The notes below the pieces were generated by a model. That model worked only from the letters and a program-made list of their open reading frames with translations, was not told where the DNA came from and made no database searches. Shown piece by piece: positions 1,334 to 53,141 of a DNA stretch of 64,000 nucleotides; within the stretch, counting starts at the first letter, position 1; the number at the start of each line of letters is the position of its first letter. The stretch comes from Candidatus Dadabacteria bacterium (GTDB lineage Bacteria > Desulfobacterota_D > UBA1144 > Nemesobacterales > JADFKM01), in NCBI GenBank assembly GCA_022564935.1, contig JADFKM010000001.1, positions 464-64,463 on the forward strand, written 5' to 3'. The position numbers and the translations under genes are program-made.

Positions 1334-2392
1334 ATGATCGACAGGATAATAGACCTCTTGAGGGGCCTTAAGGATCATATAGACGCTGCAATTAAGTTGG
1401 CTAAACCCGCCCCGAATGACTTAAATCAGGGGCGTAAAGGGCTAAAAGGGAGCGGGGAGGAGCAGCGCGACCCGAAAAGAAAGCAGATCATCAAGGCGGT
1501 GCGGATGCTCGAGAGCGACCGGCTCGAAACGCGTCTCCTGGGTATAACGGAGCTCGAGGAACTGGCCAGGGATTCAAAAGACCGGCAACGCAGGATAATA
1601 GAGGCCCTTACGGCGTGTGTGAGGAGGAACTCTCCCTGGTATCTATGGAAGTCCTACGTGCAGTCCAAGGACAGCTTGCTCAAGCCCGGCGCCGACATTC
1701 AATCCATACTTGAGATAGTCGCTCACTACAAGCGCAAGTGGAACGGCGACGAGGATTACCCCATCGACCTGAGCAGAACCGACCTGCGCGGGGCCGACCT
1801 CCGCAGGGCGCGCCTTGAGTGGGCGAACCTTCAGGAATCCCATCTCGAGAACGCCGATATGGTGGAGGCCAACCTCCACGGCGCATTCATGGCGAAGACA
1901 AGCATAAAGAAGGTGAGGCTTCCGCTTGCCGAGCTTGCATACGCATTTCTCGAATACGCCAACATGGAGGGAGCCGACCTGAGGAACGCCAACCTCAAGA
2001 ACGCGAGGCTCATAAAGGCCAATCTCAAGTGGGCGAACCTCGGCGCCTTCATCGACCCTGAAGGTCGCATTCACGGGAGCGCCAACCTGGAGGGCGCCAA
2101 CCTGGAGGGCGCGAACCTCCAAAACGCCAACCTCAGCGGCGTCAACATGAGCGGTGCTAACCTGTGGGGGGCGAAGCTCCAGGGGGCCAATTTCGATGCG
2201 GCAATCCTCAAGGACGCCAACCTCTCGTACACGAAGCTCAAGGGGGCGAAGAACCTCACCGCAGAGCAGTTGAGCAAGGTAAAGACACTGTACCTGGCAA
2301 AGCTCGACCCGCAGCTCATGGTCGAGGTGTCTATGAAGGCGCCCCAGCTTCTAGTGCCCACAAACATCTTCGACATGCTCAAAGAGCAGTGA
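1334..2392 (+). CDS. Pentapeptide-repeat protein: N-terminal alpha domain, about 30 A(D/N)LxxA pentapeptide repeats, and a conserved C-terminal tail
   Basis: Repeats such as DLRGADLRRARLEWANLQESHLENADM ... ANLEGANLEGANLQNANLSGVNMSGANL. The C-terminal tail KNLTAEQLSKVKTLYLAKLDPQLMVEV is shared with the next gene. Confidence 0.85.
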   Translation: MIDRIIDLLRGLKDHIDAAIKLAKPAPNDLNQGRKGLKGSGEEQRDPKRKQIIKAVRMLESDRLETRLLGITELEELARDSKDRQRRIIEALTACVRRNSPWYLWKSYVQSKDSLLKPGADIQSILEIVAHYKRKWNGDEDYPIDLSRTDLRGADLRRARLEWANLQESHLENADMVEANLHGAFMAKTSIKKVRLPLAELAYAFLEYANMEGADLRNANLKNARLIKANLKWANLGAFIDPEGRIHGSANLEGANLEGANLQNANLSGVNMSGANLWGAKLQGANFDAAILKDANLSYTKLKGAKNLTAEQLSKVKTLYLAKLDPQLMVEVSMKAPQLLVPTNIFDMLKEQ

Positions 2393-2474
2393 TAAACCCC
2401 TAGTTATTGTTGCATCCCTTTGAAAGTGATACAGGGGAGCAGTATCCTGTTACTTTAAAAATCGCACATCGGAT

Positions 2475-3662
2475 ATGGATAAAGTCTTGTCGAAATTTAA
2501 AGAGAATTTAAGAAGACTTCAACGCTTTATAGGCAATTTATTGCAAAGAGTGTTAGCCGGAGTTGGCTGGGGTATGGACTCCATCAAGGTTTTGTCGGAA
2601 AAATTTTATAAGAAATTAATTTCCATATGGAAAGAAAGTATTGAAGGTCAACTCTTTCTTGTTCCATTACTTTGGAAATATAAGATTCCACTGCTAGAGA
2701 TACTGGCTTTACTTATAATTTCTTCAGTATTATTATGGGGATTTATACTTTTATTGCTGCCCCCCGCCTCCGATGTTTACAACCCGAGAAAGGAAGCCCT
2801 TGAACTTTCTATTAAAATTATCGCAGGTGCTTTATTACTCGTCGGTCTCTATTATGGTTGGCGGCGCATTACAATAGCAGAAGAAGGGCAAATAACGGAG
2901 CGGTTCACTAGGGCTATTGACCAGTTGGGGAAAATTGACAATAAAGGGAAATCAGTTATCGAAGTCCGCCTCGGCGGCATCTACGCACTTGAGCGCATAG
3001 CCCGTGACTCTGAAAAAGACCACTGGCAGATTATGGAAGTTTTGACGGCATATGTTCGTAAAAATGCTCATTGGACTGGCGAGAAGGAAAAAGAGAAAAT
3101 TGACGAAAAGTGGAAGTCTGGGGAATCTAAGGAAGTGGGTGAGCAAGGTGAAAAGAAAGAGCAAAAACCGCGTGAAGATATCCAAGCAATAATAACGGTG
3201 ATAGGTCGTAGAAGTGATGAACGCCGGAAATATGAAAAAGAAAAGGGGTATGTCATTGATTTAAGCAAAACAGACCTTCGGAGAGCCGACCTTAGGAAAG
3301 CAAAACTTGAGGGAGCCAACCTATTTGATGCAAATCTTAAGGGAGCCGACCTAAGAGGAGCAAATCTTGAGAGAGCCAGGCTAATAGGAGCAAATCTAGA
3401 GGGAGCCTGGCTATGGTCATCAAATCTTGAGGGAGCCATCCTAGTGGGAGCAAATCTTGAGGGAGCCGACCTAAAAGGAGCAAATCTAAAGGGGGCAAAT
3501 CTCAAGGGAGCTAAAAAATTAACCACAGAACAGCTTTCAAAGGTGGAAACGCTTTACGAAGCCAAATTAGATAAAGAGCTTATGGAAGAGATAAAGGAAA
3601 AATGTCCGCCTCTTCTGGAAAGACCGGAAGAGGAAATATTTGTGTTCAAGGGAGATCTTTAG
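2475..3662 (+). CDS. Membrane-anchored pentapeptide-repeat protein, a lower-GC paralog of the upstream gene
   Basis: Two predicted TM helices ([23 protein letters not shown] and [17 protein letters not shown]). Shared N-domain motif ([24 protein letters not shown] versus ELARDSKDRQ..ALTACVRRNSPW). A KE-rich linker, pentapeptide repeats ([43 protein letters not shown]) and the same tail [29 protein letters not shown] stop. Confidence 0.85.
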
Positions 3663-3667
3663 CAAGT

Positions 3668-4464
3668 TCACCCGCTCCTGAGCACGAACTTTACGGGCAC
3701 GGTGACCCAGCTTGCCACAGGCACTCCGGCTCTCCGGCCGGGATAAAAAACCCACTGCTTCACGGCATTAAGCGCCGAGTCGTCAAGCGCCTCGTGGCCC
3801 GAGGAGCGCTTAAGCTCCAACGCGCCGACGGTGCCGTCCTCAAGCACACGCACCCTCAACAAAACCGTCCCCTGCTCTCCCCTGCGCCTGGCCGAGGGCG
3901 GGTAGGGAGGCTTTGGGTTGAGTCTGTAGTCGGGGTGAGCCGTGACCTCCACGGCGGGCAGTGTGTGCGACTCCCCGGAGCTTGAAGAGGCAGACAGAAG
4001 GCTAAGCTGCTCCTCGTTATTGTGCGGGTTATTATGCGGGCTATTTTGCTGGCTATTTTCCCGGCTACTTTTCTTGCGGTCTTGAGTTGCGGAAGCGGCG
4101 CTTTCACGAGGCGGGCTCAGTGTGAGTGAATCGGCTTGTATAGGCGTTGACTTTACGTAGGGTTCGCTCGTTTGCCGCTGCGGGCTCGGGATAGGTGAAA
4201 CTGCATCTATTGGCGCCGGTTGTTCGCTTGTTTTCGTGTGTGCCCGAACGGTGGTTTTGCTCTTTTGTGTGCGCTCTTGTTTATCGGCACCCCTGCTCAC
4301 GACCTGTATGTTTATCAGGCCGCGTCCGGAGGTGTGTACCTCGATGCGGAAGAAGACCGACAGCGCAGATACCAGGGCGATGTGGAGCGTGATGGAGATT
4401 AAGAGGAACTTCCAGATGCGCCCGCGGGGGTTACGATTGCCCTCGGCTCCGTTTTTTCCCGCAT
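3668..4464 (-). CDS. tonB: TonB-family energy transducer. The annotated GTG at 4300 is too far downstream. The TM helix with the SxxxH signature lies upstream, and the probable ATG at 4462-4464 is in the +1 frame across a T6 run.
   Basis: C-terminal TonB domain (GTVLLRVRVLEDGTVGALELKRSSGHEALDDSALNAVKQWVFYPGRRAGVPVASWVTVPVKFVL) and a Pro-rich spacer (PKPPYPP). Upstream in the same frame is the TM helix IWKFLLISITLHIALVSALSVFF, with no ATG/GTG/TTG before an in-frame TGA. Confidence 0.7.
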
Positions 4465-23087: not shown

Positions 23088-23195
23088 GTGCGCAAGGTGA
23101 TTGTGGTCGTGGATAGGGAGGAGGGAGCAGAACAACGCATCCGCGACGAGGGAATAGAGTATTTCTCGATATTCAAAGTGAGCGAGCTGCTTTGA
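23088..23195 (+). pseudogene. pyrE: Orphan 3' fragment of an orotate phosphoribosyltransferase (pyrE) gene, about 35 codons
   Basis: VRKVIVVVDREEGAEQRIRDEGIEYFSIFKVSELL-stop matches the PyrE C-terminus (vlvlvDReeGg...G..l.Sl.tl.dL). An in-frame TAG lies immediately upstream, and the preceding DNA is not PyrE-like. Confidence 0.55.
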
Positions 23196-23289
23196 GTCTC
23201 TTTGCCTGCTAACTACACTCTATCTATAAATTAAATTATAAAATGTTAATATGGTATTAGTTGTTCCAAATTAATGAGGATCAATAAAA

Positions 23290-23655
23290 ATGGCTAATAA
23301 TAAGAAGAAATGCTTTGTAATTTGTCAAATAGGTGAGGACAACTCGGAAGAGAGACAGCATACAGATGATGTTATGGAATATATAATCAAACCCGCCACA
23401 GATGAATGCGGATATGATGCGAAACGTTCCATAGATCTCAAGTTACCGACTACTATTACAAATGAAATAATAATTGAATTGATGGAAGCACCTCTTGTCA
23501 TAGCTGACATATCTGGGAGAAACCCAAACGTTTTCTATGAACTAGCAATAAGGCACTTTGCAAACAAAGCCACAATACAAATTAAAAATAAGTCTGAAGA
23601 CATTCCATTTGATATTAACGACCAAAGCACTATTGATTTATGGATTGCACTCTAG
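23290..23655 (+). CDS. Nucleoside 2-deoxyribosyltransferase-like / SLOG-like Rossmannoid protein
   Basis: KKCFVICQIGEDNSEERQ...APLVIADISGRNPNVFYELAIRHFANKATIQIK fits the NDT-like pattern (ADl.g.dpgt.fElGyA.algKPvi). A GAGGA SD lies 12 nt upstream. Confidence 0.55.
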   Translation: MANNKKKCFVICQIGEDNSEERQHTDDVMEYIIKPATDECGYDAKRSIDLKLPTTITNEIIIELMEAPLVIADISGRNPNVFYELAIRHFANKATIQIKNKSEDIPFDINDQSTIDLWIAL

Positions 23656-24049
23656 GGATGCACAAACAGGTAAAAATAAAATTATAGAACAAATCAAGGA
23701 ATTGGAAAAAAATCCCTCATTGAATAATCCTATAATTGTTGCGCAAAATGTAAAAAAGATCAGGGATAGTGAAAACCCATTAGAAAAAAGTGTTGCAGAA
23801 CTGATGTTAATGCTAGAGAAATTTGGAGCCAGGATTGGCGGTGTAGAGTCAATGCTAAGTATCATGTCTATGGGTAATGTATCGACTAGTGCTGGGATAC
23901 TGGGAAACTTATTTCTACCAAACCCGTATTTAGCAAAAAGTTTTACTTCAGGCACTCTAAAAACCCCTACTAAACTACCTAAGATACTAAAAGTGTTGTC
24001 TGAAATAGAAACAGAAGAGGAACAAAAGAAAAAGAAGAAAGAAAAGTAG
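23558..24049 (+). CDS. Hypothetical 163-aa frame, Lys/Glu-rich at its C-terminus, overlapping the upstream gene by 98 nt in the +1 frame. Possibly the frameshifted C-terminal part of the same gene.
   Basis: A 164-codon open frame in about 32% GC DNA is unlikely by chance. Its only start is a TTG three codons after a stop. Composition (helical, KE-rich tail EEEQKKKKKEK) is protein-like. Confidence 0.4.
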   Translation: MQTKPQYKLKISLKTFHLILTTKALLIYGLHSRDAQTGKNKIIEQIKELEKNPSLNNPIIVAQNVKKIRDSENPLEKSVAELMLMLEKFGARIGGVESMLSIMSMGNVSTSAGILGNLFLPNPYLAKSFTSGTLKTPTKLPKILKVLSEIETEEEQKKKKKEK

Positions 24050-24351
24050 CTTATTAATCGTATGGAAACCTACGAATTAGAAGGGCTACTTATCACGGGT
24101 CGGAGCCGCTTTGATTTTTCTCCCCTTCTTTATGCGGCCGGAACCCTTGACCTTGGGCTTCGCTCCTTTTCCTGCCCTTTAACCATCTAATATGTAAGAA
24201 AGACTCGGCGCAAAAATAGATTGAGTTTTTTTGAGGTGATTCGATATGTCATATGGCAATTCAGATAATAAGGAAGAGAGCTGCCGGTGCGGCTACGTTT
24301 ACCTCTTCGGCCTTCTTGGGATTCAGATAAAGAAGCTCTGGTACAGGTTGT

Positions 24352-47367: not shown

Positions 47368-48509
47368 CGGTGGTTGTGTTGAGGGGGCGTGCCCTTTGCC
47401 CTGATTTTGATGCTTGTGGGGTGATTAATCTACTTCGCCGCGTCCATGCTGCTCATTGAATAGGCCGTCCTTTCCCCTTAGGAAATGCCGCAGCGCTCTT
47501 CGGTGTGGAACAGATTTTCGAGTTCGTCCTCGAATCCCTCACGGGTTTAGTCCGGGAAGTTGTTCTCTCGCCTAAAGAGCATAAGCTTCATTTTAGAGTC
47601 TGTCTTGGGAATAAATCCGGTCATGAGCTATTTGACCTCAGAGGACGGGCAAGCCTTTTTCCCATGCCAGCTCAGGATGTAGTCGAGGGTGTTTCCGAAG
47701 GGCCTTTTTGTCCCTGAAGCCGCTTCCAGCTCGGCGGTCAACTCCTTAAGCCTTTCGGCCGAAGCGATTAACAAGCTCAAATCGCACCTTAAGCATCCGC
47801 CCAGAGTAGAGTGGCGAGAATCTGCGTCAATATGTAGTCGGCCTCTTTTGATTTCTCCATTGCCTTGCCGCAGGCCTTCATTTCAGTATGTGAGCAGTTC
47901 TGCAGATAGTATTCCGCCGTGTTTAAGCGTGTATTGAAAAGCACCCGATACAGATGTATTGCACACAGTAAGTGGCGAAGTATTGTAGGAGCCCGGTTTC
48001 AGGGGCTGCTTCGTTATGGAGCCGCTCTTTGCTCAAATATATCAAATCACACTCGCAGCTTATTGTAAAGGAGGAAAAAAAGTAGGGGGAAGAGCCCTCG
48101 GGAAAGCCCTCCCCACTGGGGGGTCATCGACAAACGACTTGTTGAGTCAATCGGAGGGATTCTCTCCTCTCATAGTTCTATTCCTATTCTCCGCACTCGA
48201 TTTCAACCTGTGCGTTTCCTTGTATCTCAAAGTCTTCTATTGAGCAGGAGGCTCCAGAGACTTCCACTTCGGCGTTGCCCATGACTCTTATGTCCCGTTC
48301 TTCACCATCGATGCTGACACTGTCGCTTTCTGCCTGTGGAGTCGGTGAAAGTGCTGCTTTGAACCCCTATGAGTTTCGGCTCGATGTCGAGGCTCAGGGG
48401 GAAGCCCAGTATGAACACCCTCTTTATTAAATATAAGGGTAGCCGGCCGTTGTTATCAACCGTTAAATACCGGTCTTCTTATACTGAAGGGTTTATTCTT
48501 CACGGCCCC

Positions 48510-50593: not shown

Positions 50594-50917
50594 ATGTCTG
50601 AAGATATAGTGAGCAAGATTCAGTCACAAATAAACGAAAACGACATCATCATCTACATGAAAGGCACCCCGGAGATGCCACAGTGCGGCTTCTCCGCCCA
50701 GACGGTCGGCCTGTTCAAGTCGTACGGCGTGCCCTTCACCTCGGTCGATGTCCTCGAAGACCCCGAAATAAGGCAGTCCATAAAGGAGTTCTCCAACTGG
50801 CCCACCATCCCGCAGGTCTACATAAAGGGGCAGTTCGTAGGCGGCTGCGACATTTGCAACGAGATGCACGCAAGCGGCGAGCTTGAAAAGATGGCGAAGA
50901 GCGCAGTAGCGGGCTGA
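50594..50917 (+). CDS. grxD: Monothiol glutaredoxin (Grx4 family)
   Basis: CGFS active site (MPQCGFSAQTV), WPTIPQVYIKGQFVGGCD. Confidence 0.9.
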   Translation: MSEDIVSKIQSQINENDIIIYMKGTPEMPQCGFSAQTVGLFKSYGVPFTSVDVLEDPEIRQSIKEFSNWPTIPQVYIKGQFVGGCDICNEMHASGELEKMAKSAVAG

Positions 50918-50983
50918 AGCAGCGCTGCGTAGAAGCTCATAGCCCGCTTCGAAGTGGGACGGTCTGATGATGGAGCGTGGGCT

Positions 50984-51301
50984 TTAGAGGTCGGTTTCTG
51001 TTATTTCGAACTTTGTCCTTAGAAACATTATCAGCTCGGTAAGAGCTTCTCTCATAGACAACGTTAGTGCGGTCTTTCCGTACCTTCCCTCTACCACGTA
51101 ATCGAAATCCGCCGTCACGTGGTACTCGGATAGATCCTCTCCCGCGATGGTAGTCGAATCGCTGAGGATCTGATGGTATTGCGTTACAAGCTTATCGGAA
51201 ACGGGAGCGGAATCCTCTGAGGGGAGTGAGTACCGCATCGCCTTAAGCTCCGCGTACCGCACCTTCAATTCGTTCCTCTGTTCTTCAGTCAGCTCCGCCA
51301 T
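50984..51301 (-). CDS. Hypothetical 105-aa protein; paralog of the N-terminal domain of the next gene
   Basis: MAELTEEQRNELKVRYAELKA...LP...VS..V..Y..L aligns collinearly with residues 1-105 of the 240-aa neighbour. The same promoter-like repeat (AATCTATAATAGCATA) lies 55-75 nt upstream. Confidence 0.6.
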   Translation of the reverse strand: MAELTEEQRNELKVRYAELKAMRYSLPSEDSAPVSDKLVTQYHQILSDSTTIAGEDLSEYHVTADFDYVVEGRYGKTALTLSMREALTELIMFLRTKFEITETDL

Positions 51302-51355
51302 GGTTAGCCCCCTGCATAATGCTTTACATCGGTTATCTATATTGAGTTCCCGCTT

Positions 51356-51377
51356 CGAATCTATAATAGCATAGAAG
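51356..51377 (-). promoter_or_regulatory. Promoter-like repeat copy 1 (CGAATCTATAATAGCATAGAAG)
   Basis: Same 17/21-nt element and same spacing (about 55 nt) upstream of both paralogous ATGs; contains a TATAAT-like hexamer. Confidence 0.45.
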
Positions 51378-51417
51378 ATGTGAAAACAGAGTAAAAGTGT
51401 GTCAGAATTTTATCGTC

Positions 51418-52140
51418 TTATTTACTTTCCCTCACCTTAGTTTCATTCAAAATATCCAGTAGTATGTCAATAAAAGCCAGTATTTTCATTGCATCCTCTC
51501 TGGAAAACTGGTCTGAGAGCTTGTGATGGGTTTCGCCTCTAAAACTTAACATCGTACCCCTATAAAGCTGGTAAAAACCTTCTTGTTCGGATGGGGTACC
51601 ATCTATAACTAGTAAGCCCCTTGTATTATGAAGAACTGTGTTAACTAATTTTACTCCCACCTCTGTTAAGTCAGGGTCTGCTAAATTTCTAATTCTGTGT
51701 TCTAATATGGTGGTTGCTTCTCGTATTACTCTGTCAAAATTTTCTTGGGCTGATAAAAGGTCGATGCATCTTTCCTTTAACTCATTATCCTTGATTATCT
51801 TAATGATATTTCCTATTCCAACAATTGGTTTACTTTCTACTGATTCGAATTCTATGTTAATCAGTGCAATTAGTTGTCTAAGAATCGATTTAAATGATAG
51901 ATTAAAATAACGTCTAACAAGTTTTCTTCCAGTGGTGTATTCAGCATCTGGTTTAATTTTGAATTGTGAGAAATCTTTCTCAGATACACTTTCCAAATCT
52001 TTAAGAAGTCTAAAATAGCTATTAACGATTTGGTTAGATACCATTTCGGTTTCTTTTTGGGGCAGTGTGTCATCTATTGCTCTTAGCTGAGCAAATATAA
52101 TTTTTAATTTTTTGTGCTGCTCTTCAGACAACTCTGCCAT
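51418..52140 (-). CDS. Low-GC gene: N-terminal domain shared with the upstream paralog plus a C-terminal HEPN/Ymh (TIGR02391-like) domain. Abi- or toxin-like.
   Basis: MAELSEEQHKKLKIIFAQLRA... N-domain. The C-terminus (VIREATTILEHRIRNLA...GVKLVNTVLH...EQEGFYQLYRGTMLSFRGETHHK...DAMKILAFIDILLDIL) has the HEPN Rx4-6H motif (RGETHH) in Ymh-like context. A GCGCATATGCGC palindrome lies upstream. Confidence 0.6.
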   Translation of the reverse strand: MAELSEEQHKKLKIIFAQLRAIDDTLPQKETEMVSNQIVNSYFRLLKDLESVSEKDFSQFKIKPDAEYTTGRKLVRRYFNLSFKSILRQLIALINIEFESVESKPIVGIGNIIKIIKDNELKERCIDLLSAQENFDRVIREATTILEHRIRNLADPDLTEVGVKLVNTVLHNTRGLLVIDGTPSEQEGFYQLYRGTMLSFRGETHHKLSDQFSREDAMKILAFIDILLDILNETKVRESK

Positions 52141-52172
52141 TGCAAAACCCCTTCTTACAAATTAAGTCAGTT

Positions 52173-52184
52173 GCGCATATGCGC
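52173..52184 (-). promoter_or_regulatory. 12-bp perfect palindrome GCGCATATGCGC between the promoter repeat and the SD of the HEPN-like gene. Candidate operator.
   Basis: Visible perfect palindrome; absent from the paralog's upstream region. Confidence 0.4.
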
Positions 52185-52192
52185 TCCTACTA

Positions 52193-52213
52193 CAAATCTA
52201 TAATAGCATAAAG
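52193..52213 (-). promoter_or_regulatory. Promoter-like repeat copy 2 (CAAATCTATAATAGCATAAAG)
   Basis: See copy 1. Confidence 0.45.
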
Positions 52214-52286
52214 TGCTACCATGTTTGAATAGTCCGTGGAAAGAAAGAGTGAGTAAGCGGGGTGAGAGAATTCGTCCCGGATTGAC

Positions 52287-53141
52287 TCACCGCTGCGGGC
52301 AAGGTCTGGTCTCGCCGCATATCTTGGCGCCCTTCATAGTCCGCAGGTAGGCCAGTATTGCGTTAAGCTCCATCTCGGAAAGGTCGCCGAAGGCGGGCAT
52401 ACCGCTCCGCGCCCTGAAGCCGGGGGCGTTGCGGATGAACTGGCGCAGCATCCCCTCCTTCCAGTACTCCGTCACATTATGGGGCACATTTAGCTCCGGC
52501 CCCACCGTGCCGCCCACTAGATTAACAGTGTGGCACATCAGGCAGCGGGTCTTGAACAGCGTCATTCCCCTGTAGACCACCGACGTCTTGGGCACTCTCG
52601 GCACGGCGGCGGTGTAGTATTCCATATAGGGCATAACGCTTATGGACTGGAGCTCGTAGGGCCAGTGGTAGCGTTTGTCCTTATGAGAAACCCCCTCCCA
52701 CACGAGGTAGAACGGGGCGGGTGAGACGGTTTTGCCGCCCTGCATGACTGGCATCCAGTCCTTGCCCTTCGGCGCGTTGAGGTCGCGCACGGCTATAACG
52801 CCGCGCTTTTTGAGGGCGTCGTCGAGGGACATCACGGGGGTGTATCCGTCGGCGCAGTGGAACACAAGCTCGCCGCCGGCTTTGCGAATCTTCTCTATAT
52901 CCGGCACAGTCCTCAGCAGCGCCTCAAGCGGGTAGCCCATGTAGCGCTTCTTCTTGCCGTACGCCGGGTCGTCTGCGATGACAACTTCCACGAGGGGTTT
53001 AAGCCTGCCCTGGTTCTTCAGCATCTGTATGTCTATTACCGCATACGGGTCTGCGTGTGCGGCCATGCCCGCACCGAAGCACAGCGCGAACACTACGGCG
53101 AGCAACGCAAGGCCTTCTATACTCCAAAACTTATAAATCAT
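52287..53141 (-). CDS. Periplasmic c-type cytochrome domain protein
   Basis: Signal peptide plus a CLMCH heme-binding motif (CxxCH) in the C-terminal third. The N-terminal domain is unassigned. Confidence 0.6.
   Translation of the reverse strand: MIYKFWSIEGLALLAVVFALCFGAGMAAHADPYAVIDIQMLKNQGRLKPLVEVVIADDPAYGKKKRYMGYPLEALLRTVPDIEKIRKAGGELVFHCADGYTPVMSLDDALKKRGVIAVRDLNAPKGKDWMPVMQGGKTVSPAPFYLVWEGVSHKDKRYHWPYELQSISVMPYMEYYTAAVPRVPKTSVVYRGMTLFKTRCLMCHTVNLVGGTVGPELNVPHNVTEYWKEGMLRQFIRNAPGFRARSGMPAFGDLSEMELNAILAYLRTMKGAKICGETRPCPQR

Follow-up and report, generated by a model that had tools for sequence, protein, structure and literature searches.

Two neighbouring genes that begin with the same domain may be a functional pair, or one of them may be a newcomer standing beside a relative. 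This question is raised by a locus in a 64,000-nucleotide (nt) stretch of DNA (the window) from Candidatus Dadabacteria bacterium (assembly GCA_022564935.1, contig JADFKM010000001.1), where two minus-strand genes, encoding proteins of 240 and 105 amino acids (aa) and referred to here as the long and short genes, share a homologous N-terminal domain (the N-domain). An earlier account based on the letters of the DNA (the sequence-only reading) had taken them for a module of the toxin or abortive-infection (Abi) type, in which a HEPN RNase-like effector is accompanied by a truncated paralog acting as decoy or antitoxin. The analysis described here leads us, at somewhat better than an even chance, to favour another reading, namely that the long gene is an acquired single-protein effector of the conflict or Abi type that lies beside an older, N-domain-only relative. 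The long gene is foreign by composition and strain-variable, and across the loci compared below the short gene is not its conserved partner.

The nature of the long protein is indicated by its C-terminal part, for which the sequence-only reading had proposed a HEPN/Ymh-like domain carrying an RGETHH signature (R201-H206), and which a Pfam search places in the HEPN Ymh family above the cut-off. Residues 119-230 match PF09509 (Hypoth_Ymh) with E=2.4e-16 and 60.1 bits (cut-off 25), the match spanning profile positions 5-118 of 119, and a scan of the long protein against Pfam at E values up to 1 returned Hypoth_Ymh alone, with no match to AbiJ or AbiJ_NTD. Residues R201, H205 and H206 are invariant or nearly so in the family alignments A3 and A5, and every one of the 72 distinct full-length relatives with the N-domain plus Ymh architecture has R-x3-H-H; conservation of the Rx4H motif suggests that the catalytic site has been retained. 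The AlphaFold (AF2) model of the long protein contains two domains (predicted local distance difference test, pLDDT, 83.5) with a disordered linker at residues 102-110, and the C-terminal domain is predicted to adopt an all-helical HEPN fold. Searches of the PDB by sequence gave nothing significant, a Foldseek search of the PDB with the whole model told little, the protein being helical and of two domains, and PHROGs returned only a match at E=0.01 to a family of unknown function. Ymh is listed as a HEPN family with a conserved Rx4-6H motif in the survey of Anantharaman et al. (2013), where it occurs solo or fused to paraMORC, AbiJ-NTD1/2 or AbiTii, often near restriction-modification (R-M) systems (PMC3710099). 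The C-terminal domain is thus, as judged by profile and motif, a Ymh-family HEPN domain with a conserved Rx4H site.

The homology and collinearity of the two N-domains, also noted by the sequence-only reading, are borne out by a gapless alignment over 103 aa (31% identity, 61% positives, E=1e-19) that includes the shared start MAEL[ST]EEQ. Both AlphaFold models, that of the short protein being confident (pLDDT 88.1), have the same N-domain topology, with helices at residues 6-24 and 36-53, a beta-hairpin at about 66-79 and a helix at 80-97, in agreement with the common fold that had been anticipated. At the nucleotide level the two domains are far apart, third-codon-position identity being a saturated 0.29; each is the best non-self match of the other, by 70 vs 56 bits for the long N-domain and 62.8 vs 62.4 bits for the short gene. 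The N-domain is covered by neither Pfam nor NCBIfam, and a Pfam scan of 52 family members gave no match to it.

A profile built from eight N-domains and searched against 1.84 billion representative proteins gave 68 matches at E <= 0.001, and these reveal one head domain joined to several kinds of tail. In addition to the N-domain plus Ymh-HEPN proteins of about 230-247 aa, the family comprises proteins with one C-terminal transmembrane (TM) helix (eight representatives, 137-302 aa), one protein with 7 TM helices, and a stand-alone class of about 106-122 aa ending IGF[KR], from whose count P0015, P0024, P0034, P0073 and others were left out because they are contig-end or frameshift fragments of longer genes. 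Such a combination of one head with several effector-like tails would match the pattern of modular single-protein conflict effectors. The largest class, of about 180-200 aa (P0026-P0032, P0035, P0040, P0042, P0058, P0064, P0066 and others), has no Pfam or NCBIfam family and ends in a conserved amphipathic helix (e.g. ..NFSKELFIKIIPILLEK or ..ILPELLKRWG) that may be a membrane-active tail. The N-domain plus Ymh architecture is distributed patchily across phyla; a search of 5.8 billion sequences gave 13 homologs of the long protein, the closest being 44-54% identical. One homolog, P0005 (L010:4064-4774), is an apparent pseudogene, in which a stop codon interrupts the frame about 16 codons into a recognisable MPVLSEEQ... 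start and the C-terminus is divergent and runs into the following gene.

Composition separates the two genes of the window. As the sequence-only reading had observed, the long gene is markedly lower in G+C content (GC), at 0.34 vs 0.50 for the short gene, and at third codon positions (GC3) the values are 0.29 and 0.61; the genes around the pair have GC3 of 0.52-0.78, so that the short gene is host-like. The foreign composition of the long gene indicates that it was horizontally acquired at some point, and its foreign look agrees with the earlier statement that it is not housekeeping. Four long-family homologs are likewise low in GC (0.35-0.39), each lying below its own flanks (0.44-0.49).

The long gene is also variable between strains. 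Two sister-strain contigs, L006 (GCA_036477325.1) and L007 (GCA_044345325.1), are about 98-99% identical to the window and show the gene order cytochrome c, 148 bp, short gene; by alignment, what is missing from them is exactly 837 bp, and the junction falls within the repeat formed by two copies of a promoter-like core, of which they keep one, with one mismatch. BLAST of this empty site gives a 19-nt overlap at the junction, and three single-nucleotide polymorphisms (SNPs) lie within 10 nt just 3' of the core in the empty-site strain. A further contig, L008 (GCA_965367475.1), carries both genes at 99.8% identity, and L106 is identical to the window over 6.3 kb, long gene included. The present polymorphism may have come about by insertion at the core or by loss of the stretch from one core to the other. 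More distant relatives, sought through the neighbouring cytochrome c gene, give no ancestral state: the next homolog of that gene falls to 51-52% identity and its surroundings are no longer syntenic. Folding, repeat searches and reading of the junctions revealed no attC-like hairpin, terminal inverted repeat or dif-like dyad at the ends of the unit, no tRNA gene was found in the window, no flanking direct repeats were found around four homolog genes, and the 837-bp unit occurs at no other fetched locus.

On recurrence of the long/short pairing the sequence-only reading had, in advance, staked its module, and the survey of relatives did not find it. A metagenome scan recovered 186 relatives, from which 80 loci were kept, and a hidden Markov model (HMM) of the N-domain was run on all six-frame open reading frames (ORFs) of 104 loci. 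It matched 82 of these, and two copies were present only in the locus of this same species (L008), a second N-domain gene being seen in no other species; once same-species and duplicate loci had been dropped, 67 independent loci remained that offered 450 nt or more of sequence on one side, 45 of them doing so on both. The long-gene homologs P0003, P0004, P0005 and P0007 are lone genes in unrelated contexts (e.g. nuoL/DUF1634, fumarase/GAF-kinase), and the neighbours of 28 loci with longer flanks are mostly housekeeping genes, with no family common to all. Defence genes occur sporadically near family loci, namely type I R-M with Schlafen/AlbA (L024), a ThsB-like TIR and SIR2-pAgo. The clearest defence-island context in the family is that of L024 (96-6907), where the relative P0018 directly follows a type I R-M operon (HsdS, HsdR, YgjP-like) and is itself followed by an unknown 240-aa gene and then a Schlafen/AlbA_2 protein.

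A different arrangement was seen in an AT-rich subclade (GC about 0.28-0.31) of about 11 loci (L034-L036, L039, L040, L047, L049, L051, L054, L057 and L059), whose N-domain plus Ymh gene is 71-94% identical between loci and is always preceded, on the same strand, by a 400-570-aa protein that varies far more (34-58% identical). This upstream protein combines a Zn-ribbon-like cysteine motif at its N-terminus with Pentapeptide_3 repeats and, at its C-terminus, an Ion_trans_2 channel domain; in L057, for example, its gene lies at 1987-3483, upstream of the N-domain plus Ymh gene at about 3501-4172. Farther upstream the flanks of these loci mostly differ. The pentapeptide/ion-channel and N-domain-Ymh genes may be a conserved two-gene module or may just reflect local synteny, and some family members may accordingly work with partners, though not with an N-only paralog.

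The short gene is probably the older resident, to judge from a codon composition like that of the host and from its occurrence in both haplotypes. It is intact, has a good Shine-Dalgarno sequence (AGGGGG before the ATG), and encodes the N-domain only, stopping at the domain boundary. Its sole homolog in 5.8 billion sequences is its own 99% variant, from a Thermodesulfobacteriota metagenome-assembled genome. Since its nearest relatives are all N-domain plus Ymh proteins and it ends at the domain boundary, the short gene is most likely the descendant of an N-domain plus Ymh gene that lost its HEPN domain. The short protein matches nothing in Pfam or PADLOC, and its only NCBIfam match, to the addiction-module family TIGR02574, is non-significant (E=0.14, 12 bits vs a cut-off of 31.9).

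Both genes are preceded by the same short element, and here the sequence-only reading requires some correction. The repeat itself is real, but its exact length is 16 nt rather than about 20; its distance to the two start codons, described as identical, is 54 vs 56 nt and hence only close; and the TATAAT attributed to it lies on the opposite strand, the gene strand reading TGCTATTAT, an extended -10. On the gene strand the exact 16-mer TATGCTATTATAGATT has two copies in 64 kb and no more even when up to 3 mismatches are allowed, and it can be extended to 19-20 nt with one indel, or to 31 nt at 81% identity. That the homology of the two upstream regions might reach past the core was considered and excluded by shuffling: the similarity of the 5' untranslated regions (UTRs), like that of the left flanks, does not exceed that of shuffled controls (p=0.86 and 0.38, respectively). 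Given these dissimilar surroundings and third codon positions that are 29% identical, the core stands out as a sharp, recent-looking block between anciently diverged genes. The 16-mer was sought upstream of all fetched homologs and found for no other family member, which makes it a local promoter feature and not one carried along by the family. The number of promoter-like sites in the region is not above that in shuffled controls.

A perfect 12-nt palindrome, GCGCATATGCGC, had been reported for the long copy only, and it is indeed unique in the window; it is present also in the second strain with the long gene and at no other fetched locus. It could be an operator or a weak RNA hairpin, the RNA fold at this position being not significant (z -1.85). 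Folding of the UTRs revealed no terminator or attenuator, the UTR folds being not significant, and folding of the 44-nt 3' spacer between the long and short genes revealed no hairpin (free energy, dG, -1 kcal/mol). A scan of positions 50800-52400 against Rfam gave no credible RNA family.

From these observations the following course of events may be envisaged for the favoured reading. The long-gene unit would have been inserted, or retained, beside the older N-domain-only relative. Transcription would begin at the extended -10 core, and the palindrome, which would fall at about +10 to +21 of the resulting transcript, may serve as an operator. As no terminator follows the long gene, both genes are probably co-transcribed from the upstream core, the short gene keeping its own core copy. 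By analogy with other HEPN proteins, the HEPN domain would dimerise and cleave RNA by means of R201 and H206, with the N-domain either sensing a trigger or holding the enzyme inactive, and activation would arrest the growth of the cell or of the invader, as in Abi and toxin systems.

The arrangement from which the question arose would have a HEPN toxin in the long protein and, in the short N-only paralog, an antitoxin, decoy or dominant-negative form, both acting by N-domain heteromerisation within a two-gene module with related promoters. It has several features of the locus on its side: the genes are same-strand neighbours that no terminator separates, a 16-nt promoter core is common to both, the N-domains are homologous, alike in predicted fold and mutual best non-self matches, and the short gene is intact with a good Shine-Dalgarno sequence and a confidently predicted fold. 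Stand-alone N-only proteins (about 106-122 aa) also occur elsewhere in the family, of which at least one subclade may work with a partner gene. This interpretation is nevertheless unlikely. Pairing is absent from all other N-domain loci surveyed, the long-gene homologs stand alone in other genomes and are apparently viable so, and the persistence of the short gene by itself in the sister strain argues against its being kept solely as an antidote; the short protein, moreover, has no PADLOC or Pfam match and no more than the addiction-module hit at E=0.14, and GC3 values of 0.61 vs 0.29 imply that the genes did not arrive or evolve together. A variant to which we attach slightly less weight still would make the resident N-only protein an immunity or gatekeeper factor, which would heteromerise with an incoming N-domain-HEPN protein and inactivate it or retune its trigger, the core serving both co-regulation and as a recombination handle. 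A lineage-specific interaction between the 240-aa and 105-aa proteins is possible.

The pair might alternatively have arisen in place, by partial tandem duplication of the promoter, UTR and N-domain of an ancestral long gene, with later loss of the long copy from the sister strain by way of the repeats. Collinear, gapless N-domains with a shared MAEL[ST]EEQ start, each the best non-self match of the other, would follow from such an origin, as would a core that is a direct repeat at equivalent positions, and a direct repeat of 16-19 nt is a plausible substrate for slippage deletion. We consider this improbable, as an exact 16-mer stands against third codon positions that are saturated (0.29), similarity between the UTRs is not significant, GC3 of 0.29 vs 0.61 is irreconcilable with long co-residence in one genome, and absence of the core upstream of every other family member marks it as local and not as a family heirloom. 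We regard it as very unlikely that the 837-bp unit behaves as a small mobile cassette of the integron-cassette or Xer/dif type, for which a recombinase supplied in trans would carry out site-specific integration at the 16-19-nt core. A sharp exact repeat does bound this foreign, strain-variable, single-gene segment at both ends, and the three SNPs within 10 nt adjoin the junction in the empty-site strain; yet the 3' spacer has no attC-like hairpin (dG -1 kcal/mol), the junction sequences show no terminal inverted repeats or dif-like dyad, there is no tRNA gene in the window, core and unit are at no other fetched locus, the four homologs examined elsewhere are without flanking repeats, and no phage or plasmid copies were found. 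Equally little expectation attaches to a housekeeping or regulatory HEPN-fold protein with no role in conflict (e.g. an MtlR-like regulator or an RNA-processing factor): most family loci do lie among housekeeping genes, but the long gene is strain-variable and foreign in composition, its distribution across phyla is patchy, Rx4H is fully conserved, and the N-domain is found also on proteins with TM tails.

The favoured reading of an acquired single-protein effector has its own difficulties, which should be set against it. The TIGR02391 score of the long protein is 38.2 bits, just under (by 1.3 bits) the cut-off of 39.45 that its relative P0017 passes with 40.6 bits. Even for the Ymh family as such, metal-independent RNase activity is a prediction (PMC3710099), and the RNase, toxic and anti-phage roles of N-domain plus Ymh proteins are matters of prediction and analogy. 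Most family loci lie outside recognisable defence islands; phage homologs were sought and none found, and plasmids gave only one weak partial match, in Haloarcula. The conserved upstream partner of the AT-rich subclade would mean that the family is not always autonomous, and the mutual best non-self match of the two N-domains leaves room for a specific relationship between them. Random insertion, furthermore, does not explain why one member of a rare family should lie at the promoter of another, and the other loci of the N-domain family show no site preference.

Were the single-protein reading correct, the locus would add to the known head domains a helical one of about 100 aa, outside Pfam and NCBIfam, that is combined with HEPN-RNase, single-TM, multi-TM and amphipathic tails, and would thereby extend the catalogue of modular single-protein conflict effectors. 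The 837-bp difference would offer a natural case, cleanly delimited, of a Ymh-HEPN gene that some strains carry and others lack. The locus also carries a caution, in that adjacency and paralogy here resembled a toxin/decoy pair, yet the pairing is not conserved. Placement at a same-family promoter matters only if targeted exchange or functional interplay lies behind it; were the gatekeeper variant true, the strain would be pre-adapted to accept a toxin gene, family members would be swapped in and out at a dedicated landing site, and a new form of toxin control by a self-domain decoy would have been found.

Table 1. Features of the locus, with positions in the 64,000-nt window.
Feature	Position	Strand	Basis or remark
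Long gene (240 aa)	51418..52140	-	ORF list
Short gene (105 aa)	50984..51301	-	ORF list
N-domain of long protein, aa 1 to about 101	51838..52140	-	
Ymh/HEPN domain of long protein, aa 119-230	51451..51786	-	
Predicted catalytic motif R201-G-E-T-H-H206 (Rx4H)	51523..51540	-	
Core copy 1, 16-nt TATGCTATTATAGATT	52195..52210	-	54 nt before long gene ATG; left junction of 837-bp indel
Core copy 2, 16-nt TATGCTATTATAGATT	51358..51373	-	56 nt before short gene ATG; right junction of indel
Promoter-like site of long gene: TTCAAA, 18-nt spacer, TATTAT, upstream TG	52200..52229	-	Consensus match only
Perfect 12-nt palindrome GCGCATATGCGC, long gene 5'UTR	52173..52184	.	Unique in window
Strain-variable unit, 837 bp: core copy 1, 5'UTR, long gene, 44-nt 3' spacer	51374..52210	-	Alignment, BLAST, gene maps

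The long gene is flanked by its short paralog and by the cytochrome c gene. The pair had been placed downstream of bolA-grx, but is instead convergent with grx, from which the short gene is separated by a 66-nt gap. This gap contains a 16-nt near-palindrome, CCCGCTTCGAAGTGGG (50943-50958), of which an 11-mer, TTCGAAGCGGG, recurs just past the promoter core of the short gene (51349-51359); as a meaningful repeat flanking the short gene the 11-mer was rejected, such a match being at chance level for the region. Two further observations concern other parts of the window. A second strain-variable indel, about 3 kb from the pair and beside a 180-aa MFS fragment, consists of about 1.6 kb extra in the sister strain (window 48312-48325; L006:8990-10582) and overlaps most of a 431-aa ORF (L006:9422-10717) with no Pfam match. 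At 23150-24100 the GC falls to 0.34, the level of the long gene, in a second low-GC island that contains ORFs of 121 aa (23290..23655, plus strand) and 163 aa (23558..24049, plus strand) that overlap in different frames; they may be one frameshifted gene, and have no match in Pfam.

In a comparison with known systems, the features that mark the ends of integron cassettes, Xer/dif elements and insertion sequences (attC hairpin, dif-like dyad, terminal inverted repeats) were not seen at those of the 837-bp unit. Toxin-antitoxin pairs, whether type II-like or of the HEPN-MNT kind (type II/VII, e.g. Shewanella SO_3166/SO_3165, PDB 5yep), would have a nucleotidyltransferase (MNT) or a DNA-binding antitoxin as partner of the toxin, and the short protein, with no Pfam or PADLOC family, matches neither; the neighbour here is a copy of the long protein's own N-domain, and the long/short pairing is not conserved. 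There is also some resemblance to the SLATT proteins, which are predicted to serve conflict systems as membrane effectors: the N-domains of the long protein and two other members match positions 84-175 of the 180 in SLATT_5 (NCBIfam NF033631) with E of about 1e-4; several N-domain family members also carry TM tails. The score, however, is about 22 bits, far short of the 60 required, matches come from no more than 3 of about 53 members, and the domain order is reversed, so that we treat the SLATT_5 link as a lead only. Residues 132-235 of the long protein likewise match, weakly, the C-terminal part of PD-Lambda-3_B (PADLOC PDLC03987; E=2.8e-5, 21.5 bits), but only that part, the N-terminus being different. 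PD-lambda-3 behaves as an Abi system and has been used as an Abi control (PMC13190303); with a short paralog (without PADLOC match) and a cytochrome c gene as its flanks, the long gene has no second PD-lambda-3 component beside it.

Closer likenesses are found within the Ymh family, which the long protein resembles in the above-cut-off Pfam match of its C-terminal 112 residues, its conserved Rx4H and its predicted all-helical HEPN fold. Ymh domains occur solo or with variable N-terminal domains and sometimes near R-M, as does the relative in L024 that follows a type I R-M operon; the N-domain of the long protein, judged by the Pfam scan, is not paraMORC, AbiJ-NTD1/2 or AbiTii. Relative to the single-protein HEPN Abi proteins (AbiJ, AbiD/AbiF, AbiU2), its HEPN domain is Ymh and not AbiJ or AbiD/AbiF, and its N-domain has no match to the AbiJ-NTD families. 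In common with them, however, it places HEPN with Rx4-6H behind a variable N-terminal domain of about 100 aa, its family's genes are solitary, patchy and low in GC, and the same N-domain is reused with other effector tails. In its layout, a non-catalytic N-terminal domain and a C-terminal HEPN domain in one polypeptide with solitary homologs, the long protein fits the AbiJ type.

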